IMG/VR virus record: IMGVR_UViG_3300025738_000082
Span: 1 to 14,310 of that record
DNA: 14,310 bases
Reading direction: 5' to 3' (one strand)
Source: a virus
This document shows, one piece after another, positions 1 to 13,485 of this stretch; within the stretch, counting starts at the first letter, position 1, and the number at the start of each line of letters is the position of its first letter. Under the pieces are notes generated by a model, which had not been told where the DNA came from, made no database searches, and saw only the letters and a program-made list of their open reading frames with translations. A program made the position numbers and the translations under genes.

Positions 1-1290
1 TTCCCATTCGGACGGAGTGATATGGCAAAGAAAATCGGCTTTGTCCTCTTCTTGTTTTAAAATTTCTTCGTCAGATATATCAGCATCTAAATCAAAATAT
101 TTTCTTAAACCTTTCGACCATCTAATCAAGTTAACCCCCTGCATTGCTCTAGCATAAAATAAAAATAAAATTCTGTTATCTGTGCGCTCTTCTTTAGTTT
201 CGGCTTCAGTTGCATCACTCAATAAATCCCATGGACTTTTAGAACCTTTACGACCTGTTTTTGTGTTGCCTTTGGTCATTTCGTCAGCCATATCCCAAGT
301 TACTTTTTTACCTGTAGCCGTTGTTAAAAATTCATCATCAGCCCCAAATTTAGAAATATATTCACCTGCAAAAGCACCGTTCTGAATATCCATCCCATAC
401 TCATTAGGACAAGCTAAACCCGACAATTTACAAGCACTTTTCCAACGAGTTAAAATTTTTGTCCATTCATCATGTTGAACTTTTGAAGGCTTACCAGATT
501 TAGTACGAGCCGTTAAAGGTAAAGGCTTTTTGCTAAAAATAATAATATGAAAATGAGGGTGCCAACCATTAGAACCATGACGGATTTCAAATGATCGTAT
601 GTTGCCAATAATGCCAAATTTTTCTTTGAATTTTTTAGCTGGACTTCCTCTCCAAAAACGCTGTAAAGCATCCGAAATTTTTACTTTTAAATCTTCTACT
701 TTATCACCTGAATGATGTGGAGCCGTAAGAGTCAACATAGAAATATTTAGCTTTTCTGCTCTAGCGATATTAAAAGCCATACGCATCTCATTCGATTTCC
801 GTTCTGAAATTTTAGCGGAACAAACGGGACATGTTCTAGAATTTGCACAATTCATCAAGCCAGAATAAAAAGCCTTACCATTAGTTTTTGATTTTACAAT
901 TTGAGTTGTTACACCACTTCTAAAACGGGTACAGCTACAAGTCCTATGATGAACTTCATAGCCTTTTGCATTTACGCGAACGTCTGAGCCGTAGTAACCG
1001 AAAAGAATATTTCTCGCTGTATCTTGTAATTGATAACGGACTTGTCGAGCGAGATTGATTGCTTGCTTCTTTGGTAACACACCAACATTTTGTATTTCAC
1101 CTGTGGAGAAATCCGTAACAGAGAAACTTTTTGATGAGTTTGTTTCGAGGGGGGGGGTTCGTAACTTCGTAGCATTACCGAGAGCGCTCCGCGCTTCTCC
1201 TCCTTGCTCAGGCTTCGCCGTCGTCGTCGCTTGTACGCGCTTTTCTTGGGACTTATCTTGATTAACTGATACTTTATCAATATAATTCAT
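1..1290 (-). CDS. Rolling-circle replication initiator (HUH, pC194/Rep_1-like motifs). Partial: 430 N-terminal codons, 3' end beyond the window.
   Basis: ATG at 1290..1288. My hand translation of the first ~55 codons (MNYIDKVSVNQDKSQEKRVQATTTAKPEQGGEA...LRTPPLETNSS) parallels rep2. The DNA aligns with 7041..8318 with only a 12-nt in-frame insertion near the 5' end. The track lists no rep-frame fragment, consistent with an ORF open to the window edge. Confidence 0.85.
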   Translation of the reverse strand, partial: MNYIDKVSVNQDKSQEKRVQATTTAKPEQGGEARSALGNATKLRTPPLETNSSKSFSVTDFSTGEIQNVGVLPKKQAINLARQVRYQLQDTARNILFGYYGSDVRVNAKGYEVHHRTCSCTRFRSGVTTQIVKSKTNGKAFYSGLMNCANSRTCPVCSAKISERKSNEMRMAFNIARAEKLNISMLTLTAPHHSGDKVEDLKVKISDALQRFWRGSPAKKFKEKFGIIGNIRSFEIRHGSNGWHPHFHIIIFSKKPLPLTARTKSGKPSKVQHDEWTKILTRWKSACKLSGLACPNEYGMDIQNGAFAGEYISKFGADDEFLTTATGKKVTWDMADEMTKGNTKTGRKGSKSPWDLLSDATEAETKEERTDNRILFLFYARAMQGVNLIRWSKGLRKYFDLDADISDEEILKQEEDKADFLCHITPSEWE

Positions 1291-1339
1291 TTGTCTGCTC
1301 TATATCGTCGTGGTTGGTGATTTAAGGCAAAAAGACAAA

Positions 1340-1377
1340 GGGTTGAATGTTTTCGCGGACGTTCAACCCATTTTTTT
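1340..1377. terminator. GC-rich stem-loop with U-tracts on both sides. Bidirectional terminator or attenuator-like, about 50 nt upstream of the rep start.
   Basis: GGGTTGAATGT (1340-1350) pairs with ACGTTCAACCC (1359-1369), 11 bp including one G-U. It is followed by T7 on the plus strand and by TTTGTCTTTTTG on the minus strand. Identical copy at 8369..8398. Confidence 0.5.
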
Positions 1378-1604
1378 GCTCAAAATATAATAATGTATTT
1401 AAAGAACAAAGAGAAGTTTAGCAGGATGGCAAAGGTGAAAATTAAAAATCATTAGTCATTTTGTTTAACTACTGGTTATCAATTAACAGCATTCAGCCCT
1501 CTGATATATTTCTCGCTTAACTGTAAATACTCCCCAAAAATCGCAAGCTAATTTGCTAACTTGAAAACAAAAAAGTTTATATCTGCGATGCTTAAGAAAA
1601 GTAA

Positions 1605-1658
1605 TTGGTACCAAAAACAGTTCACCGGTTTCAATCCTGGAAACAAAAATGGTACCAC
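1605..1658. promoter_or_regulatory. Two GGTACC palindromes (1607-1612, 1651-1656), 44 bp apart. Candidate operator pair between the RHH gene and rep.
   Basis: TTGGTACCAA and ATGGTACCAC. Same pair with the same spacing in unit B (8636, 8680). A degenerate GGTACT lies at 1705-1710. Confidence 0.5.
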
Positions 1659-1708
1659 TAAATTTTACGGCCAACTCCGTTCGTCAGCCTATAGATTTTT
1701 TTTTGGTA

Positions 1709-1978
1709 CTAATCTATAAAAACTGGATTTCTCATAGCAAAATTATGAATTATCGTTTCTGCTTCAGATTTAGCTAACAAAGAATCTTGTAACTCATTAA
1801 CCTCTGCATTTAAATCTTCATGTTTAGATTTCAATAAATCATATCTTTGTTCTAAATCGGCAAACCTTAAAATAACCTGCAAAGCCGCACCACTAGAAGT
1901 TCCAACATTAAAGCGAGATTTTAACTTTTCTATTTCTTCTAAAAACTCTTCTGTATCATTATTAATTTTAACTAACAT
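1709..1978 (-). CDS. Ribbon-helix-helix-like DNA-binding protein with a C-terminal coiled-coil (89 aa). Putative phage regulator.
   Basis: The N-terminus MLVKINNDTEEFLEEIEKLKSRFNVGTSSGAALQVILRF fits a beta-strand, helix, G-x-S loop, helix pattern as in Arc or CopG. The heptad-like C-terminus is shared with unit B (NAEVNELQDSLLAKSEAETIIHNF identical). It has its own promoter and a GGGT RBS. Confidence 0.6.
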   Translation of the reverse strand: MLVKINNDTEEFLEEIEKLKSRFNVGTSSGAALQVILRFADLEQRYDLLKSKHEDLNAEVNELQDSLLAKSEAETIIHNFAMRNPVFID

Positions 1979-2001
1979 AATTTAACCCTTTAATTGATTA
2001 T

Positions 2002-2096
2002 CTGGTACCATTTTAACAGATGCGAACCACAAGTAAAGTTAATTCGGTACCAAAATATCAATTATTTTCCCCCAGGTTATTTTTAATTAGTACCAA
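2002..2096. promoter_or_regulatory. Three phased (T)GGTACC-type palindromes upstream of and overlapping the RHH gene promoter.
   Basis: GGTACC at 2004-2009 and 2046-2051, and AGTACC at 2089-2094. Spacings are 42 and 43 bp. Same layout in unit B. Confidence 0.55.
2004..2037 (-). promoter_or_regulatory. Sigma70-type promoter of the 89-aa RHH gene, with a GGTACC palindrome abutting the -10.
   Basis: On the minus strand: TTTACT (2037-2032), 16-nt spacer, TGtTAAAAT (extended -10; -10 at 2015-2010), then GGTACC immediately after. The unit B equivalent is TTTACA-17-TAAAAT. Confidence 0.5.
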
Positions 2097-2220
2097 AACG
2101 TAAAGCTCTAGCCGTATCAAGAGCATTATCAACACCGATAAAAAACCCCATACAAATACAAACAGCACAGGCAACAAAAATTAATAAATTATCTTTATTA
2201 TCACTCAGAAATTTCTTCAT
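2083..2220 (-). CDS. Small single-pass membrane protein (45 aa), overlapping the zot 3' end.
   Basis: Hand translation: MKKFLSDNKDNLLIFVACAVCICMGFFIGVDNALDTARALRFGTN. A positionally equivalent 42-aa ORF with the same architecture (polar N-terminus plus one TM helix) exists in unit B. It falls below the track length cutoff. Confidence 0.45.
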   Translation of the reverse strand: MKKFLSDNKDNLLIFVACAVCICMGFFIGVDNALDTARALRFGTN

Positions 2221-3550
2221 TATTACTTTCCTTATCATTTAAAAAAGAGGGTGAAACGTCACGTTCAGGTTTCTCATATTTAACTGGAGCAAAAAAAACT
2301 AAACGTGAATTAACACCATCAGACAAACTAACTACAGAATCACTTTTAAAAGAAATCCTATAACCCATAACAACCAAATCAGAACTATTAACCGAAAATT
2401 CATCTGTACCAATATGGACAGAAAAAACATATTCAGCCGTAACCCTTTTACCTAATCTATAAATTTTATTGATACCCGTTAGATAAATAGCATCAGCGCT
2501 ATAGGGCAAAGTTAAAGAACCAACATCCTCAAACAAAGTCTTAGGAGTGACACGACCAACAGGAGAATGAATATCTTTTTGAATATCTTTAGGAGGAACT
2601 TTAAAACCGTTTTGAGATGTTTTATCAAAAACGGGAATGGAGGCAATTTTATTATTTTCGATGTGACTAGTGCGAAAGAAGAATATATAAATAATAAAAA
2701 CGACACAGGCAACAAAAACACCCGCACCAAGTATGATAGATAAAGTAATGGGACTGCCACCCGCTCCAGATTTTGTGTTTTGTCCGGTTGCTGTTGATTT
2801 GTAGATTTTGAATACATCAAGAGGAATTTTCCTATTAGTAACAATGTCGCCTTTTTTCGTTACGGTACCGTTACCACTGGGTAAATGTTCCAAAACTTTA
2901 GGACGTCTTTTAAAATACGGAAAGGGAGCGGAATCCTTTGAAGTATGAGCAAATGCCGCCTCACAAACCGAACGAATAAATCCAGAAACTTCTTTAATAT
3001 CAGGAGTAGCTAAAACAATATCCCAATTATAATGACGGTGACGCATAAACGACTCGCGCAATGTAGGTGGGTATTTTATGTAGTCTCGGTCATCAAAAAT
3101 ACTTAAACCAATATCATCTTCAAACTCTGAAATATCGACCAAAGATTTTATTAATTTTTGTTTTTCATGGTAAAGCGCTTTAACCTCTGGAGGCAATTTA
3201 TCATCCCAAAACCCCTCTGATTTATAATCATAATCAGTAGCTTTAAAACTACGATCATTTGGATAAATATCTTGTATTTCATCAATAAAAATAAAAGCGC
3301 CAATTGGCAACCAATGAAAAAAATTACGTATCAATTCACGACCTAAATCGTTATTTGAAGAGATACGAACTAAACGAGCTGAAGCAGGAAAAACAATATT
3401 CAATTCTCTTGAGATTTCTTCAATCGTCTTTACACCTTGTAAGTTAGTTACGACTAAACGACCAGCCACTAAAGCAGGAAGTAATTCAAACCAACAAACG
3501 GTAGACGATTTATAAGAACCCGGAGCACCATGGAATATTTTCGTAGCCAT
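2201..3550 (-). CDS. zot: Zot / pI-family phage assembly ATPase (449 aa).
   Basis: The N-terminus IFHGAPGSYKSSTVCWFELLPAL (Walker A), FIFIDEIQDIYP (Walker B) and FMRHRHYNWDIVLATPDIKEV follow the Vibrio cholerae Zot sequence as I remember it. It has a central TM helix (ITLSIILGAGVFVACVVFIIYIFFF) and a C-terminal periplasmic domain. Confidence 0.9.
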   Translation of the reverse strand: MATKIFHGAPGSYKSSTVCWFELLPALVAGRLVVTNLQGVKTIEEISRELNIVFPASARLVRISSNNDLGRELIRNFFHWLPIGAFIFIDEIQDIYPNDRSFKATDYDYKSEGFWDDKLPPEVKALYHEKQKLIKSLVDISEFEDDIGLSIFDDRDYIKYPPTLRESFMRHRHYNWDIVLATPDIKEVSGFIRSVCEAAFAHTSKDSAPFPYFKRRPKVLEHLPSGNGTVTKKGDIVTNRKIPLDVFKIYKSTATGQNTKSGAGGSPITLSIILGAGVFVACVVFIIYIFFFRTSHIENNKIASIPVFDKTSQNGFKVPPKDIQKDIHSPVGRVTPKTLFEDVGSLTLPYSADAIYLTGINKIYRLGKRVTAEYVFSVHIGTDEFSVNSSDLVVMGYRISFKSDSVVSLSDGVNSRLVFFAPVKYEKPERDVSPSFLNDKESNNEEISE

Positions 3551-3554
3551 TAGA

Positions 3555-3944
3555 TCACCATTTCATAAAATCAAGAATGTAACGAGTAACAAACGCTTCC
3601 ATAATCAAAGTGAAAGCATCAAAAAAACGAACGTCTATAAGTGTCTGAACTATGTCAGAATCAAGGGAACCAATTGAAGTTTGAATGACATCAACCAAAG
3701 ATAAATTATCAATAAAAGTTGAAGCTATAGTGTAAGCAAACTGACTAAAGAAAATCATTGAAGTAACTTTTGCCAATATAATATATTGCAATAACCACGT
3801 TAAAAAATTCTTTAGAAAAAGCGGAATATCAATTGTTAAATATTCCCACATCGAGCCAAAAAAACTTGCTACAGAATCAGTAAAACCACCTGCAAATGAA
3901 CTGCTAGAAAAGAGCAGCACAAAAATAATAAATAAAATTCTCAT
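3555..3944 (-). CDS. pVI-like minor virion or membrane protein (129 aa from the internal ATG).
   Basis: It lies between the pIII-like and zot genes, as gVI or ace does. It is hydrophobic with multiple TM segments and homologous to unit B 10616..11029. The ATG at 3944 overlaps the pIII stop (TAATG). The upstream part of the track ORF lies inside pIII and has no counterpart in unit B. Confidence 0.6.
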   Translation of the reverse strand: MRILFIIFVLLFSSSSFAGGFTDSVASFFGSMWEYLTIDIPLFLKNFLTWLLQYIILAKVTSMIFFSQFAYTIASTFIDNLSLVDVIQTSIGSLDSDIVQTLIDVRFFDAFTLIMEAFVTRYILDFMKW

Positions 3945-5350
3945 TACATACGCCCTTGAAAAATTATTGATAAGGAAATTAAAGAAGCGAGTGCATACAA
4001 AATCGCACCGATAGAAGCAAAATACTGAGAGAACCGCGACCATGAAATATCATAAGTCCCCTGAGATAAAACAAGATTCGTTTGCTGATAACCACTACCC
4101 GTAACAGTCAAATTAAATTTAGCCATTAAACTAGTTTTATAAGAATTTATATTTTCCTTTAAAGTAATTTCAGCCCCTGCAATTTTTGTGTTTACCTCGG
4201 TTTGGTCAAGAAACGAAGTGATAAAAGAACCTGAGCCGTAACGCGTCAAAGTTCCTGCTCCAGTATTTTCAAGTGAATTAGATTCGATAGCCGCAACAAT
4301 ATTTTCAGAATTAGTAGTTCCTGAAGCCGCACTATTATTAATTGAATTAATCATTCCAGAATCATCAAAACTACCACCAGTGGAACCACCACCAGAGCTA
4401 CTTTGAATAGCGCTTATAACTTCGTCTAATTTGGAAATTGAATTAGTAGAATTAACAGCATCAACAACAGCATTTTTAGCAACAATGGTTTGTTCAGCGT
4501 TTGAATTTCTAAGGTTGATAACCTCGTTTATTAACACATCACCTTGAGTCGTTGTAATACCATCGTTTCCAGTTCCATCAGCCGTTGTTGTTCCATCAGC
4601 TACATAAGGAATATCGGTTGTACTTGTAGGTGTGTAAGCATCACCACAACCAAAAACACAATTTGGGTCAGCAGTATCAGCAACATCACAATCAGCTAAA
4701 TCATTTGGATCGGCAGGATTACATAAACCATCAGGAGCATTAGCAAGTGAGCCGTTTTTATCTCCAGTTGTACCGTCATTACATATAAAATCACAGGATA
4801 AAGTTGAATCACCATTATCAGTAAAATTTGAAGATGTTAAACCATTATGTGAGAAACATTGGTTTTGAGCCATAGTGGTACATTCTTCATTGTTGGCTAT
4901 TGGTTCGGGCTCAGGAGGTGAGCCACATTCGTAAGTATAATCACCACTATTTTCAGGAGTCCATGAAAAATCTTTTAGGTCGACATTAGCAGATTCACAT
5001 TTGTCTTGAGCGATCTCTTGGCAATCATCAAAGTTACAACCTGCCGAACCACCATAATTAAAAGTTATTGTTTTTCTATGGGTACCATTTGAACCAATAA
5101 GAACGGCAATTTTCCCATTTTGCCAAGTGGAAAGCTGAATATATTGATAGCCACTACAATAAGAAGAACCAGACATAACTGAAGTTACAGCCGCAAACAT
5201 TTCATCTTTCGTTCTAAATTTATGGTTCGTTAAAAGAGATTTATTATCTGGATACATTGAACAACTAGTATCAACACCAGTGCCAATTAAATAAGAAGCT
5301 GAAGAACTAAAACTGAAAAGGGTTATAAGCAATAAAAAAATATATTTCAT
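3944..5350 (-). CDS. pIII-like adsorption / minor coat protein (468 aa).
   Basis: Signal peptide MKYIFLLLITLFSFSSSA, Cys-rich N-terminal domains, Gly/Ser/Thr/Asp-rich linkers (SSSGGGSTGGS) and a C-terminal membrane anchor (ASIGAILYALASLISLSIIF). It sits after the coat gene. Confidence 0.7.
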   Translation of the reverse strand: MKYIFLLLITLFSFSSSASYLIGTGVDTSCSMYPDNKSLLTNHKFRTKDEMFAAVTSVMSGSSYCSGYQYIQLSTWQNGKIAVLIGSNGTHRKTITFNYGGSAGCNFDDCQEIAQDKCESANVDLKDFSWTPENSGDYTYECGSPPEPEPIANNEECTTMAQNQCFSHNGLTSSNFTDNGDSTLSCDFICNDGTTGDKNGSLANAPDGLCNPADPNDLADCDVADTADPNCVFGCGDAYTPTSTTDIPYVADGTTTADGTGNDGITTTQGDVLINEVINLRNSNAEQTIVAKNAVVDAVNSTNSISKLDEVISAIQSSSGGGSTGGSFDDSGMINSINNSAASGTTNSENIVAAIESNSLENTGAGTLTRYGSGSFITSFLDQTEVNTKIAGAEITLKENINSYKTSLMAKFNLTVTGSGYQQTNLVLSQGTYDISWSRFSQYFASIGAILYALASLISLSIIFQGRM

Positions 5351-5362
5351 AAGTCACCAAGT

Positions 5363-5389
5363 AAAAAAAAAGCGCCCTATTAAGACGCT
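5363..5389 (-). terminator. Rho-independent terminator or attenuator between the coat gene and the pIII-like gene.
   Basis: Minus strand: AGCGTC-TTAATAG-GGCGCT (6 bp with one G-U) followed by T9. Unit B has a different stem sequence (AGTCTC/GAGGCT) at the same place, also followed by T9. Ff phages carry a terminator after gene VIII. Confidence 0.6.
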
Positions 5390-5460
5390 CTGATACCTGA
5401 TGTAAATCCTTCTATCATTGCGTAATAGAGGCAACAGGCAAACAAAATGGAAATGACCAT
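5380..5460 (-). CDS. 26-aa hydrophobic micro-ORF. Candidate pVII/pIX-type minor virion protein.
   Basis: MVISILFACCLYYAMIEGFTSGIRAS, versus VVLTVLIACTFYYCMVEGFSSGIRVS in unit B (12388..12468). The frame and length are conserved and the substitutions are conservative. It starts 3 nt after the coat stop. Confidence 0.5.
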   Translation of the reverse strand: MVISILFACCLYYAMIEGFTSGIRAS

Positions 5461-5463
5461 TTT

Positions 5464-5664
5464 TTACTTACGGAACCAACCAAGTACAGCATTTACACCG
5501 AAACCAAGGATAGCAATTGCAATTACAGCCGCAATTACAGCAGTTACGTTGCCAGTTCCTTCAGTTGAAGCAGTACCGATTTGAGTTGTTAAGTCAGCCG
5601 CATTAGCACCAACAGAAGCAACAAGAGTAGAACCGACTAAAACTAATTTTTGTGAAGTTTTCAT
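5464..5664 (-). CDS. pVIII-like major coat protein precursor (66 aa from ATG; the track ORF starts 12 nt upstream at TTG).
   Basis: Signal peptide ending ANA|AD. The mature peptide of about 44 aa has an acidic/polar N-terminus, a hydrophobic core (AVIAAVIAIAILGFGV) and a basic C-terminus (WFRK). Confidence 0.8.
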   Translation of the reverse strand: MKTSQKLVLVGSTLVASVGANAADLTTQIGTASTEGTGNVTAVIAAVIAIAILGFGVNAVLGWFRK

Positions 5665-5689
5665 ATTATTTTCCAAATTATTAAGAGTT

Positions 5690-5944
5690 TTATTTACCTA
5701 ACCAGCGCACAACGCGTCCGGCAAAGTGAGAAGTTAAAAAAGCTAAAATTAAAGCCGTTTCAACGATTGCAAAAACCTCAGTGTCAAACGCAAATAAGAC
5801 GCTTAAAAGTTCCTGCATTTGTTGCAATGAACCAGATTGTAAATTTACAAATTCAACCTGCGTCATTAAAACAAATTCGGTACATTCCGTTTCAGCCGCA
5901 ACTTTTAAAAAACCGCTACCATCAGCTACAGCACAAACAGACAT
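5690..5944 (-). CDS. Small membrane protein (84 aa), unknown function. Possibly a minor virion or assembly protein.
   Basis: The C-terminal TM helix plus basic tail (AIVETALILAFLTSHFAGRVVRWLGK) is conserved in unit B ORF 12696..13166. Tightly packed between the ssb-like and coat genes. Confidence 0.55.
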   Translation of the reverse strand: MSVCAVADGSGFLKVAAETECTEFVLMTQVEFVNLQSGSLQQMQELLSVLFAFDTEVFAIVETALILAFLTSHFAGRVVRWLGK

Positions 5945-5949
5945 TATTA

Positions 5950-6264
5950 TTAAGCCGCCTTTCTAGGTGAGAAACCGATTATTTCCATCGTTACGCCACC
6001 ACCTTTTACAGCCGTTTTTACATCAACATCAACAAGACCAGGAACTAAACCGGATGATGCTAAAGAACGAGCTAAAACGTTATCTTGTAAAACAGACATT
6101 TTTACTTTCGCATGTTGCTGTCCTACGTCGATACGATCACTAGATATTTCGTCAGCTACGTTTTCATCAAGAATAATTGCGCTTGCATAAACTATTTTTT
6201 CACCGCTATTAGAATCGACCATGTTGCCTGCACTAATGCGTAAAATATTCATTTGTACTTTCAT
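5950..6264 (-). CDS. Putative ssDNA-binding protein (gV position), 104 aa from the ATG at 6264.
   Basis: First gene of the structural operon. Its size and the beta-rich composition I judge by eye suit a gV-type protein. It matches unit B in length and closely in sequence (MKVQ...RISAGNMVD...IDVGQQHAKVKMSV). The GTG start in the track (6282) lies inside the leader repeats and has no counterpart in unit B. The function is inferred from position only. Confidence 0.5.
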   Translation of the reverse strand: MKVQMNILRISAGNMVDSNSGEKIVYASAIILDENVADEISSDRIDVGQQHAKVKMSVLQDNVLARSLASSGLVPGLVDVDVKTAVKGGGVTMEIIGFSPRKAA

Positions 6265-6274
6265 TTTTTTCCCC

Positions 6275-6298
6275 TGAATCACTGAATCACTAAATCAC
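6275..6298. repeat. Three tandem 8-bp repeats, TGAATCAC TGAATCAC TAAATCAC, in the 5' leader of the structural operon.
   Basis: Direct reading. They lie between the predicted transcription start and the RBS (GGGGAAAAAAAATG) of the ssb-like gene. Conserved in unit B at 13497..13520 with one change (TAAACCAC). Confidence 0.7.
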
Positions 6299-6308
6299 TT
6301 TGAACCAG

Positions 6309-6338
6309 ATTCTAGTTGCAAGTGAGATCTTGTGTCAA
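6309..6338 (-). promoter_or_regulatory. Strong sigma70-type promoter of the structural operon.
   Basis: Minus strand: TTGACA (6338-6333), 18-nt spacer, TAGAAT (6314-6309). Identical hexamers and spacing in unit B. An imperfect 10-bp inverted repeat, CACTTGCAAC-N9-GTTCAAAGTG (6296..6324), is centred on the -10. Confidence 0.65.
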
Positions 6339-6366
6339 TAGTTATTTGTATCAAAAGCTATATAAT
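6335..6366 (+). promoter_or_regulatory. Candidate promoter of the plus-strand 59-aa gene, back-to-back with the structural promoter.
   Basis: Perfect TATAAT at 6361-6366 (13583-13588 in unit B). The -35 is only weak (conserved TCAATAGTT) and overlaps the minus-strand TTGACA. Confidence 0.4.
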
Positions 6367-6400
6367 TAGAAATGAACTAGCTAAAAAGAGAATGGAAATT

Positions 6401-6580
6401 ATGAAAACTGAAAGTATTAGAGCAAGGATTGAAGATGCGAAAATCTTGAAACAGGAATGCAGGGTTATGTCAGCAGAACTACAAAGACAGGTGCCTGTAA
6501 GTGAATTGGTAAATGGATTAATGGAGTACCTAGAAAGTGCCAAAGAAAAAATTAAAAATACTACTGGTGAAGTTAGCTAA
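6401..6580 (+). CDS. RHH (CopG/Arc-like) small DNA-binding protein, 59 aa, transcribed divergently from the structural operon.
   Basis: MKTESIRARIEDAKILKQECRVMSAELQRQVPVSELVNGLMEYLESAKE fits a beta-strand, helixA, loop, helixB pattern (compare the CopG pattern ...SrSelireAlreyLe). The ATG at 6401 corresponds to the unit B ATG at 13620, which has an AAGGAA RBS. The upstream GTG extension in the track is not conserved in unit B. Confidence 0.65.
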   Translation: MKTESIRARIEDAKILKQECRVMSAELQRQVPVSELVNGLMEYLESAKEKIKNTTGEVS

Positions 6581-6585
6581 GAAAG

Positions 6586-6640
6586 AAAAAATCAGCTACA
6601 GAAGATTAAAGAAAAATCTTGAAAAATAGCTGATTTTTTT
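6586..6640. terminator. Nested hairpin flanked by an A-tract and a T-tract. Bidirectional terminator between the convergent rep2 and the 59-aa gene.
   Basis: AATCAGCTA (6590-6598) pairs with TAGCTGATT (6627-6635). An inner AAGATT/AATCTT stem is present. A6 lies upstream and T7 downstream, so it reads as a terminator on either strand. Confidence 0.6.
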
Positions 6641-6644
6641 GAAT

Positions 6645-6668
6645 GTTCGGGAAGCCCCCACCCCGAAC
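6645..6668 (-). terminator. GC-rich hairpin directly after the rep2 stop codons.
   Basis: GTTCGGG (6645-6651) pairs with CCCGAAC (6662-6668). The same stem with a different loop lies at 13873..13893 after rep3. Confidence 0.45.
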
Positions 6669-6671
6669 TTA

Positions 6672-8318
6672 TTACTCTAGTTCTTTTCTTCTTTCCATAT
6701 AATGCTTATTAAGTTCAGCGCTTTTAGCTCTTTTTTCTTCATCTCTTTTTGCACCTACCCAATTAAAAGATCGCTCGTCAGTTTCTACTGGAGTTGTTAA
6801 ATAGTTTTGATGTTGAGGCTTAACCTTATGAATAATTTCGTGCCTAGTTTCAGTCGTCGAATATTCATTAACTTCTGGCATATCTACATCTGGATGATTT
6901 TTTCTATCCATAAATTCAAAGTAAAATTCTTCAAAACTCATAAAAGAATATGCAGGATAAAACAAACGAGCTACAGCTTCAGAACCACCATTTTCAGCAA
7001 GTTCTAAAAGAATATGACGTTTTTTATTTTTAATAATATATTCCCATTCGGACGGAGTGATATGGCAAAGAAAATCGGCTTTGTCCTCTTCTTGTTTTAA
7101 AATTTCTTCGTCAGATACATCAGCATCTAAATCAAAATATTTTCTTAAACCTTTCGACCATCTAATCAAGTTAACCCCCTGCATTGCTCTAGCATAAAAT
7201 AAAAATAAAATTCTGTTGTCTGTACGCTCTTCTTTGGTTTCAGCTTCGGTTGCATCACTCAATAGATCCCAAGGACTTTTAGAGCCTTTTCGACCTGTTT
7301 TTGTGTTGCCTTTGGTCATTTCGTCAGCCATATCCCAAGTAACTTTTTTACCTGTAGCCGTTGTTAAAAATTCATCATCAGACCCAAATTTAGAGATATA
7401 TTCACCTGCAAAAGCACCGTTTTGAATATCCATTCCGTACTCATTAGGACAATCTAAATCAGACAATTTACAAGCACTTTTCCAACGGGTTAAAAGTTTC
7501 GTCCATTCTTCAGATTGATTTTTTGATGGTTTGCCAGATTTACTGCGAGCCGTTAAAGGTAAGGGCTTTTTACTAAAAATAATAATATGAAAATGAGGGT
7601 GCCAACCATTAGAACCATGACGAACTTCAAAAGATCGTATGTTACCAATAACACCAAATCTATCTTTAAAACTTTTAGCCGCCTTTCCTCTCCAGAAGCG
7701 CTGTAAAGCATCAGAAATCTTAACTTTTAAATCTTCTATTTTATCGCCTGAATTATGTGGAGCGGTAAGGGTTAACATAGAAATATTGAGTTTTTCTGCA
7801 CGAGCAATATTAAAAGCCATACGCATTTCATTCGATTTTCTTTCGGATATTTTTGCGGAGCAAACGGGACATGTTCTAGAATTTGCGCAATTCATCAAGC
7901 CAGAATAAAAAGCCTTACCATTAGTTTTTGATTTTACAATTTGAGTTGTTACACCACTCCTGAAACGGGTGCAACTGCAAGTTCTATGATGAACTTCATA
8001 GCCTTTAGCATTTACGCGAACGTCAGAGCCATAGTAACCGAAAAGAATATTTCTCGCGGTATCTTGTAATTGATATCGAACTTGTCGAGCGAGGTTAATT
8101 GCTTGCTTCTTTGGTAACACACCAATATTTTCAATTTCACCCGTGGTGAAATCCGTTACAGAGTAACTTTTTGAGGAGTCGGTTTTAAGGGGGGGTGTTC
8201 GTAACTTCGTAGCATTACCGAGAGCGCCCCGCGCTTCTCCTCCTTGCTCAGGCTTCGCCGTCGTCGTCGCTTGTGCGCACCCTACTTGATTAACTGCTGT
8301 TTTATCAATATAATTCAT
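6672..8318 (-). CDS. Rolling-circle replication initiator (HUH endonuclease, pC194/Rep_1-like motif set), 548 aa.
   Basis: Motif I LTLTAPH, motif II GWHPHFHIIIF (HUH), motif III with a candidate catalytic Tyr GEYISKFG. An upstream Cys cluster is present (HHRTCSC ... CANSRTCPVC). A C-terminal extension of about 170 aa has no motif I recognise. Confidence 0.9.
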   Translation of the reverse strand: MNYIDKTAVNQVGCAQATTTAKPEQGGEARGALGNATKLRTPPLKTDSSKSYSVTDFTTGEIENIGVLPKKQAINLARQVRYQLQDTARNILFGYYGSDVRVNAKGYEVHHRTCSCTRFRSGVTTQIVKSKTNGKAFYSGLMNCANSRTCPVCSAKISERKSNEMRMAFNIARAEKLNISMLTLTAPHNSGDKIEDLKVKISDALQRFWRGKAAKSFKDRFGVIGNIRSFEVRHGSNGWHPHFHIIIFSKKPLPLTARSKSGKPSKNQSEEWTKLLTRWKSACKLSDLDCPNEYGMDIQNGAFAGEYISKFGSDDEFLTTATGKKVTWDMADEMTKGNTKTGRKGSKSPWDLLSDATEAETKEERTDNRILFLFYARAMQGVNLIRWSKGLRKYFDLDADVSDEEILKQEEDKADFLCHITPSEWEYIIKNKKRHILLELAENGGSEAVARLFYPAYSFMSFEEFYFEFMDRKNHPDVDMPEVNEYSTTETRHEIIHKVKPQHQNYLTTPVETDERSFNWVGAKRDEEKRAKSAELNKHYMERRKELE

Positions 8319-8368
8319 TTGTCTGCTCTAAATCGTCGTGGTTGGTGGTTTAAAAGCAAAAAGACAAA

Positions 8369-8407
8369 GGGTTGAATGTTTTCGCGGACGTTCAACCCAT
8401 TTTTTTG
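8369..8407. terminator. GC-rich stem-loop with flanking U-tracts upstream of rep2 (copy of 1340..1377).
   Basis: GGGTTGAATGT...ACGTTCAACCC at 8369..8398, then a T-run. Confidence 0.5.
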
Positions 8408-8633
8408 CTCAAAATATAGTAATGTATTTTAAGAAAAAAGAGAAGTTTAGCAGGATGGCAATGGAGGAAATTAAAAAAATTTAGTTATTGTGTTTAACTA
8501 GTTGTTATCAATTTACGCCAATCAGCCCTCTGATATATTTCTCGCTTACCTGTAAATACTCCCCAAAAATCGCAAGCTAATTTGCTAACTTGAAAACAAA
8601 GAAGTTTATATCTGCGATGCTTAAAAAAAATAA

Positions 8634-8687
8634 TTGGTACCAAAAACAGCTTACCGGTTTCAATCCTGGAAACAAAAGTGGTACCAA
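8634..8687. promoter_or_regulatory. Two GGTACC palindromes (8636-8641, 8680-8685), 44 bp apart.
   Basis: Direct reading. Same spacing as the unit A pair. Confidence 0.5.
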
Positions 8688-8692
8688 AAAAA

Positions 8693-8956
8693 TCAAAAAT
8701 CAGGTGTTCTCATAGAAAAATTGTGGATAATGGTTTCTGCTTCCGACTTAGCCAATAAACTATCTTGCAATTCATTAACTTCAGCATTCAAATCTTCATA
8801 CTTAGATTTTAAAGAATCGTAACGCTCCTCTAATTCACAAAATCTCAGGATTGACTGAAGGGCGGCACCACTAGAAGTTGAAACATTAAAACGAACCTTT
8901 AACCTTTCAACCTGCTCTGAAAACTCTTCTGTACTATTGTTTATTTTAATTAACAT
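8693..8956 (-). CDS. RHH-like DNA-binding protein with a C-terminal coiled-coil (87 aa). Homolog of 1709..1978.
   Basis: MLIKINNSTEEFSEQVERLKVRFNVSTSSGAALQSILRF plus a conserved C-terminal helix. GGAG RBS and its own promoter. Confidence 0.6.
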   Translation of the reverse strand: MLIKINNSTEEFSEQVERLKVRFNVSTSSGAALQSILRFCELEERYDSLKSKYEDLNAEVNELQDSLLAKSEAETIIHNFSMRTPDF

Positions 8957-8977
8957 TTTATAACTCCATAAGTGAAT

Positions 8978-9072
8978 ATGGTACCATTTTAAGCTTATAA
9001 ATTAAAAATGTAAAGCAAAATGGTACCAAAATATGAGTTATTTTCCCCCAGGTTATTTTTAAATGGTACCGA
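8978..9072. promoter_or_regulatory. Three phased GGTACC palindromes plus the RHH gene promoter (unit B).
   Basis: GGTACC at 8980-8985, 9022-9027 and 9065-9070 (spacings 42 and 43 bp). Minus-strand promoter TTTACA (9014-9009), 17-nt spacer, TAAAAT (8991-8986), with GGTACC directly downstream of the -10. Confidence 0.55.
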
Positions 9073-9201
9073 TTAGTGGTTATACACCTCAGAAACTGCT
9101 GAAAAAGAATGTGATACTCCAAAGTAATAACCAATAGCAATGCAAACAACAAAACCAAGAACCAAACCAATATTACCAACTTCTTTATTTAAACTTTTCA
9201 T
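9073..9201 (-). CDS. Small single-pass membrane protein (42 aa) downstream of zot.
   Basis: Hand translation: MKSLNKEVGNIGLVLGFVVCIAIGYYFGVSHSFSAVSEVYNH. Same position and architecture as unit A 2083..2220. Preferred over the out-of-frame 73-aa track ORF 8958..9179, which runs through the conserved operator/promoter block. Confidence 0.45.
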   Translation of the reverse strand: MKSLNKEVGNIGLVLGFVVCIAIGYYFGVSHSFSAVSEVYNH

Positions 9202-9215
9202 ATTAAAAACCTACA

Positions 9216-10601
9216 TTAACCAAGTGAAGCTACTAGAGAAGAATCCCTAACAGCGCTATTAAGTTCATCATTCTGAACGGGTGTTTCATCTCTTTTTTTC
9301 AATTCACAATAGACAAAATTTGAAGAATGTTCGGCTCGCAATTCAACCAAACAATCAGACTTATAAAAAACCTTATAACCCAAAGAATACAAATCATCTG
9401 AAGTTATAGAGTGCCTGTAACCGTCTACAAGAAGATTAAAAATATAATGACGCTTTATATTGTTTTTACTCAAACTCTCGGTTACAAGACCCGTTAAGTG
9501 CATAGATTGAGCGTTATAAGGTAGGTTTACATTATTATCATTCGCAAACAGCTCCGAAACAGAACCATGACGAGCAACAAAAGAAGTATTTTCCCCATTA
9601 TCCTTAATAGGAAGTGGAGAGTTCTCTTTATTATTAACTTTATTTTTCGGTAAAGTTTTCTGATTATCAACTTTTTGAATATTAGGTATTTTATCACCCG
9701 ATAACACTTCTTTAGTATCATCACCATCAGTGAAAAAATTGATAAGAAAAACGATATAACCGACAACAAAAGCGAGACCGATTTTGTGGCGCCAATCAAA
9801 AGGTGAACCACCTGCGCCTGATTTAGTATTTTTTCCCGTTGCAGTGGACTTATAAAGTTTAAAAACATCAAGAGGTATTTTCCTATGAGTTGTGATATCG
9901 CCTTTTTTAACAGACATACCATTTTCTTTTGGTGGGTGTTCTAATACGCGAGGTCTACGCTTAAAATATTTAATCGGGATTGCATCTTTTGAAACGTGAG
10001 CATAACCCTTTTCGGTTGCACTACGAACAAAGCCAATAACCTCCTTAATATCTGGAGTTGCAAAGATAATATCCCAGTTGTAATGTCTATGCCTCATGAA
10101 GCATTCACGCATAGTTCTTGGGTATCTTAAATATCCCCGTTCATCAAAAAGTGACTCGCCAACATCATCAAGATATTCATTCAAATCAACATTATCTTTA
10201 ATTTCTCTCTGCTCTTTATGGTAAAGCTCGACAAGCTCAACAGGCAATTGAGAGTCAAAATAACCTTCTCCTTTATTGTCGTAATCATGAGCTTTGAAAG
10301 TTTTATCATTTGGATAAACATCTTGGACTTCATCAATAAAAATAAATGCCCCGATAGGCATCCATTGATAAAAATTACGCATCAAATTTAAACCGCGGTC
10401 ATGACCTATAGAAATACGAAAAATTTTTGCTGTTGCAGGAAAAATCTCACCTAATTCAAATTGAATTTCATCTATAGTTTTTAAGCCCTGTAAATTAGTA
10501 ATAACCACACGACCTTGACGTAAAGCATCAAGAAGACGAAACCATAAAACAGTAGAGGACTTGTAAGAACCTGGAGGACCATGGTAAATCTCAGTAGACA
10601 T
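9216..10601 (-). CDS. zot: Zot / pI-family phage assembly ATPase (461 aa).
   Basis: IYHGPPGSYKSSTVLWFRLLDAL (Walker A), FIFIDEVQDVYP (Walker B), FMRHRHYNWDIIFATPDIKEV, and a central TM helix. The C-terminal domain is strongly diverged from unit A. Confidence 0.9.
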   Translation of the reverse strand: MSTEIYHGPPGSYKSSTVLWFRLLDALRQGRVVITNLQGLKTIDEIQFELGEIFPATAKIFRISIGHDRGLNLMRNFYQWMPIGAFIFIDEVQDVYPNDKTFKAHDYDNKGEGYFDSQLPVELVELYHKEQREIKDNVDLNEYLDDVGESLFDERGYLRYPRTMRECFMRHRHYNWDIIFATPDIKEVIGFVRSATEKGYAHVSKDAIPIKYFKRRPRVLEHPPKENGMSVKKGDITTHRKIPLDVFKLYKSTATGKNTKSGAGGSPFDWRHKIGLAFVVGYIVFLINFFTDGDDTKEVLSGDKIPNIQKVDNQKTLPKNKVNNKENSPLPIKDNGENTSFVARHGSVSELFANDNNVNLPYNAQSMHLTGLVTESLSKNNIKRHYIFNLLVDGYRHSITSDDLYSLGYKVFYKSDCLVELRAEHSSNFVYCELKKRDETPVQNDELNSAVRDSSLVASLG

Positions 10602-10615
10602 CTAAAACCCCTTAA

Positions 10616-11029
10616 TTAAAAAGTAATCATGTTATAAACAAAACGTGTAATAACAGCCTCGATAAGGATGGTTAGACCCTCAAAAAAACCAACGTCAACA
10701 AGGACAGAGCGAACATCAGAAGGTAAATCAGCAACGGCTAAATTAATCATTGAATTAAGTTCTACAAGATCCAGAAAAGAAGTAGCTATCTGACTTGCAA
10801 ACTCAATAGCATGTAAAAACATTGTGTATTTTAAAAAAATAAGCCAAGAAATTAACCATACAAAAAAGTTAGTAATTGCAGTTGGTATTTCAACGGTTAA
10901 AAAAAACCAAATACCATTAAAAAAACTAGCTACATCTTCAAAGAAACCTGAAAAACTAATAGAAGTATCTGAAGCAAAAACAGAAAAAGAGAAGAGCATA
11001 AAAATAGAAAAAGTAATTAATCGAATCAT
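10616..11029 (-). CDS. pVI-like minor virion or membrane protein (137 aa).
   Basis: Lies between the pIII-like and zot genes. Multi-TM and homologous to 3555..3944. Its ATG overlaps the pIII stop (ATGA). Confidence 0.6.
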   Translation of the reverse strand: MIRLITFSIFMLFSFSVFASDTSISFSGFFEDVASFFNGIWFFLTVEIPTAITNFFVWLISWLIFLKYTMFLHAIEFASQIATSFLDLVELNSMINLAVADLPSDVRSVLVDVGFFEGLTILIEAVITRFVYNMITF

Positions 11030-12360
11030 GATTTAACACCCCCTAGAATTATAAAAAAAGCACCTAGCGTAGCTAGCATTATTATTATGGATTTAAGGGA
11101 TAAATAATTTTCTGCAAAACGAGAAATTGAAATATTATGAGTCCCCCAGCCACCTGCTAAAGTTAAATTCTCAACGGAATAAGAACTCGTAGCATTAACG
11201 GAAAAATAAGACATTAAATTGTTTTTTGTTGCTGTTAATAGTTCAGAAACTTGACCTTGCTTTACTAAAGTTTGAGCATCTATATCTGATATAGCTTGAG
11301 CATTAAACAATGTATGCAATGGGGTTTGAACATCACCTAAGGATTGAGGGGTGTAAGTAATTCCATCCATAGGATTTTCAGCAGCACTTCCAGAACCAAC
11401 ACCACTCAAATTGTTAATAGCATCAACAATATTTCCATCATAAAAAGGAGCTTGAGCATTTATTGCATCAATGGTTGAATTACCAGAATCCAAGATAGCT
11501 TGTGCAACATCATCTGTTTTCTCAACAATTGTCTGGTTAGTACTGACAGTATTATCAACTAAAACTTTTTCGTTTTTATTTCTAGATTTTATAACTTCAT
11601 TAATTAAAGTATCACCTTGTAAAGCTGATAAAGGAGCAGTGGGGTCAGCCGTTCCATCAGGGGTATAACCTGTATCAGTTGTAGGATCAGGAGTTCCTGT
11701 TGTTGGAGGTAAAACACTGGTGCCAGTATTGCCAACTATTACACTATCGTCTTGAGGTTCATCACAGTAATTATTAAATAATGTACATTCTTCAGGTTCG
11801 GTTGCGGCTGTTCCGTCGTTACAAGTTCCTGAGCATGTTTGATTTCCGTTACCATCGTCTTCATAGCTTGAGCTAGCAAAACCTAAATTTGAAGAGCATT
11901 GTTGTATTACCTGTTCTTCACATTGTTTAACAGGGTCGACAGGTGTGTCACAAGAATAGGAAAAATCTTCAGGGCTATTAAATTGAAAAGCAGCTATCGT
12001 CTTATTTTGAGAAGTACAGTCGAATTTTGCTAATGCGAAACAAGTAGGAGAATCTTTACAATCAGCATCATTATTACTCGTCACTCTGTCAAACTGTCCA
12101 TATCTTTGTTGATTACCATAAGCCATCCAAGAAGTTTTTATGTATTTTATAGAACCATCTTCATATTTTTTAGTTGAATAAATAAAGTAACTAGTAACAG
12201 TGTGAGCACCATCTTTTTGAATAGACTGAAGATAAGCAAAACACATATCAGCAGAATTTCCGCAATAAGTGCCTCGATAATTATAAGAACTAGATGAAGC
12301 GCTAAAACTTAAAGCGATAAGAGATAAAAAAAACAATACTTTATAAATCACAATTAACAC
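11026..12360 (-). CDS. pIII-like adsorption / minor coat protein (about 441-444 aa; GTG start at 12360 or, more likely, 12351).
   Basis: Signal peptide (IYKVLFFLSLIALSFSA), a Cys pattern shared with unit A pIII, a Thr/Pro/Gly/Asp-rich linker, the conserved GDTLINEVI segment and a C-terminal anchor. There is no ATG. AGGTG sits 6 nt before the GTG at 12351. Confidence 0.7.
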   Translation of the reverse strand: MLIVIYKVLFFLSLIALSFSASSSSYNYRGTYCGNSADMCFAYLQSIQKDGAHTVTSYFIYSTKKYEDGSIKYIKTSWMAYGNQQRYGQFDRVTSNNDADCKDSPTCFALAKFDCTSQNKTIAAFQFNSPEDFSYSCDTPVDPVKQCEEQVIQQCSSNLGFASSSYEDDGNGNQTCSGTCNDGTAATEPEECTLFNNYCDEPQDDSVIVGNTGTSVLPPTTGTPDPTTDTGYTPDGTADPTAPLSALQGDTLINEVIKSRNKNEKVLVDNTVSTNQTIVEKTDDVAQAILDSGNSTIDAINAQAPFYDGNIVDAINNLSGVGSGSAAENPMDGITYTPQSLGDVQTPLHTLFNAQAISDIDAQTLVKQGQVSELLTATKNNLMSYFSVNATSSYSVENLTLAGGWGTHNISISRFAENYLSLKSIIIMLATLGAFFIILGGVKS

Positions 12361-12372
12361 CTAAAAAAAAAG

Positions 12373-12397
12373 GAAAAAAAAAGCCTCCTAAGAGACT
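12373..12397 (-). terminator. Rho-independent terminator or attenuator between the coat and pIII-like genes (unit B).
   Basis: Minus strand: AGTCTC-TTAG-GAGGCT followed by T9 CC T9. Confidence 0.6.
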
Positions 12398-12468
12398 CTA
12401 ATTCCAGAACTAAAACCCTCTACCATGCAATAGTAAAAAGTGCAGGCTATTAGTACTGTTAAGACCAC
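12388..12468 (-). CDS. 26-aa hydrophobic micro-ORF. Homolog of 5380..5460.
   Basis: (GTG)VLTVLIACTFYYCMVEGFSSGIRVS. The GTG start overlaps the coat TAG stop by 1 nt. Conserved with unit A. Confidence 0.45.
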   Translation of the reverse strand: MVLTVLIACTFYYCMVEGFSSGIRVS

Positions 12469-12680
12469 TACTTTTTAAACCAACCAAGTAATGAGCCAAT
12501 GCCAAAGCCTAAAATAGCTAAGGAAATAACAGCCGCTATAACCGCTGTATTGTTTGCTGTTGCTTCAGTTGAAGCGGTTGCAATTGCTGTGGTTTGATCA
12601 GAAGCAAAAGCTAAAGAAGTTGTACCCATTGCAGTTAATGCCGCTACTGTTTTACCTTTCCAAGTTAAAGTTTTATTCAT
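12468..12680 (-). CDS. pVIII-like major coat protein precursor (70 aa).
   Basis: Signal peptide ending AFA|SD. The mature peptide has a polar N-terminus, a hydrophobic core (AVIAAVISLAILGFGI) and a basic tail (WFKK). Confidence 0.8.
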   Translation of the reverse strand: MNKTLTWKGKTVAALTAMGTTSLAFASDQTTAIATASTEATANNTAVIAAVISLAILGFGIGSLLGWFKK

Positions 12681-12695
12681 TTTAAGACCTATATA

Positions 12696-13166
12696 TTAAG
12701 AGTGTTTCCCCATCGTACGAACCATGCGACCCGTAAAATAAGACGTTAAAAAGGCGATAATAAAAGCGCCTTCAATTATTCCAAAAATCTCTGGGTCAAA
12801 AGTAAATAATGTCACCAGTAATTTCTGCAATCCTTCAGTGTCAGTTGAGGCAGACTTTTCAGATAAAACGCCAAAATCATAAGTACTCATGACAATATGA
12901 CCTGAACAAGTTTGCGGAGTCTCAACAGTTCCACTAGGGCTATCAACTAAATAAATGTGGTAATCACCTGCGTCCCTTAAAACAGTTCTGTCAAAATAAA
13001 TACATTCGGCAGAATATGAATCAAAAGAAACAAAAACAATTAACAACAAAAAAAGGCAAACAGAACGCTTTTTATAAACGGTAGAATTGCGAGGATTATC
13101 AATATAATAATCTCTCCAAAAAGAGGTAATATCCTCTTCTTGCTCAATATTTTGTTGATAGCTCAT
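12696..13166 (-). CDS. Membrane protein (156 aa). Its C-terminal half is homologous to unit A ORF 5690..5944, and it has an extra N-terminal segment of about 70 aa.
   Basis: Shared C-terminal TM helix plus basic tail (IIEGAFIIAFLTSYFTGRMVRTMGK). The N-terminal extension contains a second hydrophobic segment (VCLFLLLIVFVSF). Confidence 0.55.
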   Translation of the reverse strand: MSYQQNIEQEEDITSFWRDYYIDNPRNSTVYKKRSVCLFLLLIVFVSFDSYSAECIYFDRTVLRDAGDYHIYLVDSPSGTVETPQTCSGHIVMSTYDFGVLSEKSASTDTEGLQKLLVTLFTFDPEIFGIIEGAFIIAFLTSYFTGRMVRTMGKHS

Positions 13167-13170
13167 TAAA

Positions 13171-13485
13171 TTAAGCTACTTTTTTCGGTTCAAAACCGAT
13201 AATTTCCATCGTAATGCCACCTGCTTTTACGGATGTTTTTACTTCACAAGTAACAACTCCCGGGACTTGACCGGACGAAGCTAAAGAACGAGCTAAAACG
13301 TTGTCATTTTCAACAGACATTTTTACTTTTGCGTGTTGCTGTCCTACGTCAATTCTGTCAATTGATATTTCATCTGCTACGTCTTCATCAAGGATAATTG
13401 CACTTGCATAAACAATTTTGTCACCGCTTTTAGTGTCGACCATATTGCCTGCACTAATGCGTAAAACTTCCAATTGTACTTTCAT
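13171..13485 (-). CDS. Putative ssDNA-binding protein (gV position), 104 aa.
   Basis: First gene after the structural promoter. Close homolog of 5950..6264. Function inferred from position and size only. Confidence 0.5.
   Translation of the reverse strand: MKVQLEVLRISAGNMVDTKSGDKIVYASAIILDEDVADEISIDRIDVGQQHAKVKMSVENDNVLARSLASSGQVPGVVTCEVKTSVKAGGITMEIIGFEPKKVA

Follow-up and report, generated by a model that had tools for sequence, protein, structure and literature searches.

Phased GGTACY arrays accompany a predicted ribbon-helix-helix, coiled-coil gene family in filamentous phages and are candidate operators of an autoregulator

Ribbon-helix-helix (RHH) proteins that bind centromeres usually recognize arrays of repeats within which their own promoter lies, as in ParR/parC and omega. 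F-plasmid TraM, in which an RHH domain is joined to a C-terminal tetramerization domain, binds cooperatively to spaced sbm motifs and regulates itself. Mnt of phage P22 is a small phage protein of ~83 amino acids (aa) with an N-terminal strand-helix-helix and a C-terminal coiled coil that joins dimers, and its operator overlaps a promoter. Similar features in a different geometry are predicted for a locus in a 14,310-bp stretch of viral DNA (IMG/VR record IMGVR_UViG_3300025738_000082), which is a whole JGI metagenome contig and is referred to below as the window. The window consists of two diverged ~7.1-kb filamentous-phage genomes joined head to tail (unit A, 1 to 7042; unit B, 7043 to 14262), each of which carries a gene for a short protein, 89 aa in unit A and 87 aa in unit B, flanked by GGTACC palindromes. 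Judged from sequence comparisons, GGTACY sites of this kind are probably operators of an RHH-like coiled-coil autoregulator, arranged along one face of the helix.

Out of 11 perfect GGTACC hexamers in the window, 9 lie in the two regulatory regions, and the remaining two are singletons within genes (2864 and 5081). These counts replace the 12 and 10 given in the original prediction, a reading made from the letters of the window. Enrichment over a composition-based background, which the same prediction had expected, is clear: 200 dinucleotide-preserving shuffles of the window gave a mean of 1.02 sites and a maximum of 6, and chance was rejected as an explanation. In unit A, all four predicted perfect sites (1607, 1651, 2004, and 2046) are present, as are GGTACT at 1705 and AGTACC at 2089, each with one mismatch. 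The claimed spacings of 44 bp (1607 to 1651), 42 bp (2004 to 2046), and 43 bp (2046 to 2089) are likewise correct, and a 54-bp step from 1651 to 1705 had gone unmentioned. The 1705 site sits within a 44-nt insertion that is absent in unit B, where perfect GGTACC sites occur at 8636, 8680, 8980, 9022, and 9065. Across 59 array sites, the extended consensus is a near-palindrome, WWW-T-GGTAC-Y-A-WWW, with A/T flanks that are present even in GC-rich relatives.

The upstream array of unit A has three sites, numbered from the distal end in Table 1, and consensus scanning places a sigma-70-type promoter for the 89-aa gene between sites 2 and 3. The site at 2004 had been said to abut the −10 of such a promoter; the predicted promoter (2037 to 2010) does end directly at GGTACC 2009 to 2004, and unit B is arranged likewise. 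Unit B and the related contigs L013, L017, L046, and L044 have equivalent predicted promoters in the interval from site 2 to site 3. Nine lineages have a pair of sites that brackets or overlaps a sigma-70-like core promoter reading into the family gene or its operon, and in several lineages the site nearest the promoter adjoins the −10 or overlaps it. The position of site 1 and its 43-bp step are kept in unit B, L013, L017, L046, and L048. The downstream 44-bp unit of unit A is located between the regulator gene and the intergenic region that precedes rep, the gene for the replication initiator.

An anchored alignment of all array units separated four classes. Promoter units of 41 to 42 bp (window 2004 to 2051 and 8980 to 9027) follow the pattern GGTACY-N7-8-TTTACA/TTGATA-N16-17-TAAAAT/TATAAT-GGTACY, where N7-8 is often AAAAAGC, so that one site is at about −47 and the other comes right after the −10. 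In GC-rich phages, 33-bp units instead have the second site within an extended −10 (TTGACT-16-TGGTACCAT). The 43-bp units upstream of the promoter unit contain CCWGG-N2-3-AAAATAA (window 2046 to 2094), which was found again in both window units, L013, L017, L046, and L048. The 44-bp units contain CCWGG-N7-CCGG (window 1607 to 1656 and 8636 to 8685); this GGTACY-flanked arrangement is clearest in L017 and L044, and CCWGG-containing variants of it occur in L052, L055, and L057. The CCWGG and CCGG elements hold fixed spacer positions (window 1625 to 1640 and 2072 to 2076; L014, L016, L017, L044, L052, L055, and L057), ~1.5 and 2.6 turns from the site centers and thus on the opposite helix face. 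They are conserved over 31 to 56% GC and missing in promoter units. Units A and B differ strongly in the promoter spacer but have retained the sites, the hexamers, and the spacing. On sequence grounds, the best-conserved unit is the one that brackets the putative core promoter. A simple alternative explanation of the 42-bp interval is that two sites flank the −35 and −10 of a single promoter.

A search of word-indexed proteins with a single query had no matches beyond the two window proteins. Inspection of the regions upstream of rep in IMG/VR contigs with related Rep proteins revealed clear homologues in L013, L017, and L018, and a HMMER profile of five sequences gave 75 matches at E ≤ 0.001 among 1.8 billion representative proteins, nearly all of 80 to 100 aa. 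Family size is given as ~75 clusters at 50% identity. One candidate, L002, was rejected as a spurious coiled-coil match inside a capsid gene. The family signature is M-L-[IV]-K-[IF]-x3-4, F..I..LK, [VG]-T-[AS]-S-K-A-A, and a coiled coil; in alignments of 25 and 50 sequences, M1 and K4 are invariant and L2, K20, and S29 are invariant or nearly so. The gene resides in ~6- to 9-kb inovirus contigs (L059, at 9.6 kb, has a less typical gene content), mostly between rep and zot, the gene for the Zot-type assembly ATPase, and in L050 and L056 the gene and rep point in opposite directions. Three unrelated Rep types accompany it: Rep_1 (window, L013, L017, L018, L052, and L057), Phage_CRI (L045, L046, L048, and L056), and Rep_trans (L050).

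The sites travel with the gene. RGTACY arrays adjoin it in 14 of 15 independent loci with GC contents of 31 to 56% (both window units, L013, L017, L018, L044, L046, L048, L052, L055, L056, L057, L058, and L059), which is the reverse of the outcome, gene retained and phased sites lost in relatives, that the original prediction had named as damaging to it. In the 15 loci, 40 of 98 adjacent site pairs are 32 to 33 or 41 to 44 bp apart; shuffled sequences had on average 0.34 such pairs and never more than 4. These two spacing modes differ by one helical turn, the strongest argument here for sites on one helix face, as had been proposed from the window alone. For example, in the deposited phage blackswan219-6 (L055; MZ474488, 6.7 kb, 56% GC) a family gene, annotated as hypothetical and recognized by a local hidden Markov model (HMM) at E = 3e-10, lies directly after the array (5515 to 5820). 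In a reverse test, the DNA-only pattern GGTACT-N37-38-GGTACYAAAAA-N30-32-GGTACY matched three contigs in IMG/VR, and all three are inoviruses with a family gene directly downstream. Two additional matches in metagenome contigs (L064 and L065) were judged to be unrelated GGTACTAAAAA repeats. One IMG/VR inovirus (L061) has four GGTACT sites (44, 43, and 44 bp apart) at 2673 to 2804 and two family paralogues, one per strand, at ~3400 to 3774. A four-site pattern searched in genomes matched Phytohabitans aurantiacus (L060, 71% GC), where five GGTACC sites 41, 33, 44, and 22 bp apart occupy 6878 to 7023; this locus has no detectable family gene, and its array could represent either an analogous system or a repeat with no relation to the phage arrays.

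A change of site accompanied by a change of protein was found in two contigs, L014 and L016, whose Rep proteins are 52 to 53% identical to the window Rep. Both encode a 71-aa protein of the same layout, weakly linked to the family (hhalign E = 0.001), in which the N-terminal strand differs (MAITLRLDEN or MAFPLRLDEK). Their arrays (2946 to 3428 and 3034 to 3677) have TGCTATCA (8 copies) or TGATATCA (5 copies) in place of TGGTACCA, again spaced by 33 or 44 bp and with CCAGG or CCGG at the spacer midpoint. The joint change of strand and site fits recognition by the N-terminal strand. Two sites of these arrays fall within the 3′ coding part of the 71-aa gene. Within the family proper, the core site is invariant among regulators that are only 20 to 30% identical, which suggests a housekeeping or maintenance role rather than immunity.

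Structure prediction points to an RHH-like arrangement. An AlphaFold monomer model built from 25 sequences (pLDDT 88.8) has an extended segment at residues 1 to 9, a helix at 10 to 23, a 4-residue turn, and a 56-residue helix at 28 to 83 (pLDDT ~95). This order of elements is that of an RHH protein. The predicted N-terminal strand alternates hydrophobic and polar residues (M-L-V-K-I-N), and the turn V-G-T-[AS]-S-K-A-A, kept ahead of helix 2, has the form G-x-[ST] of the turn by which RHH proteins begin helix 2 and anchor to the DNA backbone. Foldseek returned no matches with a first, 5-sequence model; with the 25-sequence model, the top PDB matches, although weak, are nearly all RHH proteins (MazE, NikR, CopG, VapB, MatP, ParD, CopA, and PrpA), and the named BFVD matches are likewise RHH or CopG proteins. 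Of the proposal that the 89-aa protein combines an RHH fold with a coiled coil, the predicted order of RHH elements and the long helix are retained, and a significant RHH profile or sequence match is not among the results. On the strength of the model, an RHH fold is likely rather than proven.

Two homologues (a 168-aa protein in L018, 751 to 1257, and the 154-aa P0016) end in an RNA polymerase alpha C-terminal domain (alpha-CTD; PF03118, E = 3e-16), which fits a factor bound at promoters; most family members are without this domain. An alpha-CTD-like module fused to a phage regulator is unusual. Among PHROGs, only phrog_8031 and phrog_37395, both entries without a function, matched the family, and weakly. 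Searches of 50,697 phage records by blastn of the region and by tblastn of P0001, P0079, and the blackswan219-6 protein added nothing new. Full-text literature searches turned up no account of the family or of GGTACC operators in filamentous phages, in keeping with the earlier statement that no such operator architecture was known for these phages.

In the mechanism that we propose, one RHH-type dimer would occupy each TGGTACCA, with its N-terminal strand reading one major groove per site and the invariant K4 and L2 pointing at the bases. The second helix would extend into an ~8-nm coiled coil linking dimers three or four turns apart (33 or 41 to 44 bp) on the same face; two such arms could span 11 to 15 nm, the length of 33 to 44 bp. 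Sites 2 and 3 would flank the −35 and −10 of the protein's own promoter, and in GC-rich relatives the proximal site would form the extended −10 TGGTACCAT. Because the sites lie around these elements, their occupancy is proposed to block RNA polymerase, making the gene or its operon self-repressing. Units away from the promoter (site 1 and the downstream 44-bp unit) may serve as cooperative loading or anchoring sites, and possibly as roadblocks at operon borders that hinder transcription into or out of the module. The core idea of the original prediction, phased operators for a coiled-coil RHH-like autoregulator, thus appears largely right. Neither its gating of read-through into rep nor its gene-spanning loop between two clusters is supported by the comparison. 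For the loop, most relatives have the upstream array only, and the distances between clusters (353 and 299, 300, 445, and 215 bp) are out of phase, so a phase-locked loop across the gene was rejected. A more speculative extension, which we regard as rather doubtful, is that the long helices pair between neighboring dimers, antiparallel or tip to tip, and the protein polymerizes along the DNA as beads, with coiled-coil length acting as the ruler for the 33/44-bp period. Such an H-NS-like chain of RHH units could use CCWGG and CCGG on the opposite face for contacts with a second partner, and alpha-CTD homologues might join the scaffold to RNA polymerase or an UP element.

Several results weigh against the autoregulator reading. 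None of 50 family members matches a Pfam or NCBIfam model, RHH models included, and PDB sequence searches yield only coiled coils, such as GCN4 and prefoldin. The Foldseek matches in PDB and BFVD have E values of just 0.4 to 4 and TM-scores of 0.3 to 0.5, and hhalign comparisons were insignificant (CopG, E = 0.07; Mnt, E = 0.41). The L050/L051 subfamily, which has the same N-terminal strand, lacks an RGTACY array, and GGTACTAAAAA repeats occur without a family gene in two metagenome contigs. A GGTAC core that is invariant in very divergent phages is unlike the operators of classical immunity repressors, and conservation of CCWGG and CCGG, which a one-protein model leaves unexplained, hints at a second partner. 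The site at about −47 and the alpha-CTD fusions would fit activation, too. In L050, TATAGCWG repeats (3360 to 3420) lie downstream of the family gene, which is divergent from the Rep_trans replication operon.

Such activation, in which the site-bound protein recruits RNA polymerase instead of repressing, draws on site 2, which occupies about −49 to −44 and has an A-tract behind it (as in GGTACYAAAAAGC-TTGATA), and on the alpha-CTD ends of the L018 and P0016 homologues. We consider it quite improbable, since in nine lineages the second site abuts or overlaps the −10 or the transcription-start region, a typical repressor position, several predicted promoters are already near consensus (e.g., TTGATA-16-TATAAT), and most family members have no alpha-CTD. 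Another unlikely role is that of a centromere-like or maintenance complex resembling those of ParR/parC, omega, or ParG. In it, the repeats would be coated by the RHH protein so as to pair or segregate the double-stranded replicative form or to control its copy number, with promoter repression as a by-product. Inclusion of the protein's own promoter in the array, as for ParR/parC and omega, would suit this role, as would a GGTAC core without the diversification of immunity operators and the presence of arrays away from the regulator promoter (the downstream units of the window and L052, and the array after rep in L017). In the cultured Pseudomonas inovirus PMBT54, an omega-like RHH gene, ORF13, lies just upstream of rep, the equivalent position, and its authors propose a function in episome maintenance (PMC10534721). 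The PMBT54 Rep is 29% identical to the window Rep, and the family HMM did not detect ORF13. Maintenance is countered by the lack of a partition ATPase or motor gene in these ~7-kb genomes (no ParA- or ParM-like gene was found in either window unit or in related contigs), by known centromere repeats that are contiguous with periods of 7 to 11 bp compared to 33 to 44 bp here, and by the finding that the best-conserved unit brackets a core promoter.

It is also conceivable, and in our judgment very improbable, that the sites are bound by some other factor, such as the Rep initiator (iterons) or a host protein, or that they act as a single-stranded DNA structure (a packaging signal or minus-strand origin). 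Inovirus origins and packaging signals usually map to the interval between zot and rep. Copies that are palindromic and have A/T flanks are able to pair with each other (27-nt arms, for example, show 78% complementarity), and the conservation of CCWGG is suggestive of a further binding partner. However, the same GGTACY arrays occur with Rep_1 and Phage_CRI, and the gene family occurs with Rep_trans as well; iterons were rejected because the arrays are not specific to one replication initiator. Arrays accompany the gene family at 31 to 56% GC, which implies diverse hosts, and site positions follow the −35 and −10 elements. Many relatives have non-palindromic GGTACT in direct orientation, which can form no hairpin; single-stranded DNA hairpins were among the explanations rejected. 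Operators of an autoregulator remain the reading that we consider probable.

The window has a 48-bp terminal direct repeat, and its genes lie almost exclusively on the minus strand. Read along transcription, rep is followed by a small divergent open reading frame (ORF), ssb, coat genes, zot, a 51-aa ORF, the GGTACC array, the 89-aa gene, the second array, the intergenic region, and the next rep. A Zot-type ATPase, a coat protein, a rolling-circle Rep, and a genome of ~7 kb identify the units as Inoviridae. Unit A was found alone in a circular 7.0-kb contig (L003, 99.4% identity) and unit B alone in L008 (99.97% identity). The units are 84 to 86% identical across rep, the intergenic region, the regulator gene, and ssb, and their structural genes are 67% identical or cannot be aligned. 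As each unit also occurs singly, the dimer is possibly a co-assembly artifact; it is either such a chimera or a true heterodimer, and the GGTACC finding is unaffected by which.

Table 1. Positions of features in the window and of site arrays in relatives. Relatives are numbered by their own contig or record, promoters are predictions from a consensus scan, and the zot, rep, and coat gene assignments are from Pfam/PHROGs.
Feature	Position	Strand	Details
Unit A regulator candidate (P0001, 89 aa)	1709..1978	−	MLVKINND N-terminal strand, helix, VGTSSGAA turn, long coiled-coil helix (predicted)
Unit B regulator candidate (P0002, 87 aa)	8693..8956	−	80% identity to unit A protein
Predicted sigma-70-type promoter, 89-aa gene	2010..2037	−	TTTACT-16-TAAAAT
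Predicted unit B promoter	9014-8986	−	TTTACA-17-TAAAAT, against GGTACC 8985-8980
Site 1, distal, upstream array of unit A	2089..2094	−	GGTACT on gene strand; overlaps 3′ end of 51-aa ORF
CCAGG/CCTGG element	2072..2076		Inside 43-bp spacer; GGGAAAATAA follows on gene strand
Site 2, GGTACC	2046..2051		8 nt upstream of predicted −35; about −49 to −44, the place of an UP element
Site 3, GGTACC	2004..2009		Abuts predicted −10 downstream; covers discriminator/transcription-start region; 25 nt before ATG
Weak extra site, GGTACT	1705..1710	+	Overlaps stop codon of 89-aa gene
Downstream 44-bp unit, unit A	1607..1656		GGTACC 1607-1612, CCGG 1625-1628, CCTGG 1636-1640, GGTACC 1651-1656
Unit B upstream array	8980..9070		GGTACC 9065, 9022, 8980
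Unit B downstream 44-bp unit	8636..8685		GGTACC 8636, 8680; near-identical to unit A copy
48-bp terminal repeat copies	1-48, 7043-7090, 14263-14310		
Zot-type assembly ATPase	2201-3550		PF05707, E = 4e-44
Rep_1 rolling-circle initiator	6672-8318		PF01446, E = 1e-10
Major coat protein			phrog_1859, E = 1e-15
L013 sites	2956, 2999, 3040		Spacings 43, 41
L018 sites	609-741		Spacings 44, 44, 44
L017 sites	861-1066		Spacings 44, 44, 32, 43, 42; second array after rep 44, 44
L052 and L057 sites			Both 52% GC; spacings 44, 33, 44
blackswan219-6 sites	5130-5508		6 of 6 RGTACY sites of the genome; spacings 44, 33, 42, 215, 44

Other elements of the window were noted alongside the arrays. Some 50 bp before the start codon of rep is a hairpin (1340 to 1369 and 8369 to 8398) with a 13-bp stem, flanked on either strand by T-runs; it is also kept in L013 and L058 and is a candidate for a bidirectional terminator, an attenuator, or an origin component. 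An intergenic element, CTCCCCAAAAATCGCAAGCTAATTTGCTAAC (window 1530 to 1560 and 8559 to 8589; L050 3555 to 3587; L048 ~2715 to 2785, reverse), is common to phages with differing Reps (Rep_1, Rep_trans, and in part Phage_CRI); it possibly serves in attachment, packaging, or the initiation of minus-strand synthesis. Neither this element nor the conserved intergenic element CCCCAAAAATCGCAAGCTAATTTGCTAAC had an exact match in 185,579 species genomes, and an Rfam scan of the window gave no match. At the start of the ssb operon, AATCACT is repeated three times with an 8-bp period (6277 to 6299 and 13499 to 13513), facing divergent 59-aa ORFs that are RHH-like in appearance (6401 to 6580 and 13620 to 13799, plus strand). 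This repeat matches the omega-repressor heptad WATCACW; BLASTP of the 59-aa protein against omega gave no match. PMBT54 has a MatP_C (RHH) gene at the position equivalent to the 59-aa divergent ORF.

If the proposed assignments are right, one unannotated protein family, one invariant 8-bp site, and a strict spacing of three or four turns would make up a testable regulatory code for widespread, almost wholly uncultured filamentous phages. The pairing of site and gene across 31 to 56% GC and three types of replication protein offers a module that could be used for annotating promoters and regulators in inovirus metagenomes. Far-apart sites for single dimers are uncommon among RHH proteins, and this system would be a model for how coiled-coil length sets operator spacing. 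Site invariance suggests a housekeeping autoregulator and bears on cross-regulation of co-resident phages, such as units A and B.

Compared to described systems that combine an RHH protein with a site array, this one is set apart by isolated single-dimer sites three or four turns apart, by the absence of a partition ATPase, and by a protein with no detectable sequence membership in a curated RHH family. Mnt shares small size, predicted element order, and, if the proposed sites are operators, a promoter-overlapping operator with the candidate, but the Mnt operator is a single stretch of ~17 to 21 bp with two half-sites one turn apart, and the arrays here consist of 2 to 6 single 8-bp palindromes 33 to 44 bp apart. 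Escherichia coli MatP, which was among the Foldseek matches at E of only ~1 (3vea, 4d8j, and 7nyw), likewise has an RHH fold and a coiled coil, and on matS one palindrome is bound per dimer and the coiled coil links separate sites. MatP differs in its extra four-helix bundle and in organizing a chromosome macrodomain via scattered sites rather than a promoter-centered phased array. Omega of pSM19035, ParR/parC of R1, and PMBT54 ORF13 are alike in being RHH proteins of repeat arrays that include their own promoter; the omega and ParR arrays, unlike those described here, are contiguous 7-bp or 11-bp units under a protein filament, with partition ATPases as partners. The GANTC motifs of a single TraM site are spaced by 12 bp, and the protein serves conjugation. 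CTXphi RstR and Pf4 Pf4r are, as is proposed for the candidate, small phage-encoded regulators beside rep that control phage genes; they are helix-turn-helix proteins whose operators diversify by immunity type, whereas the family described here has an invariant core site and an RHH-like predicted fold.

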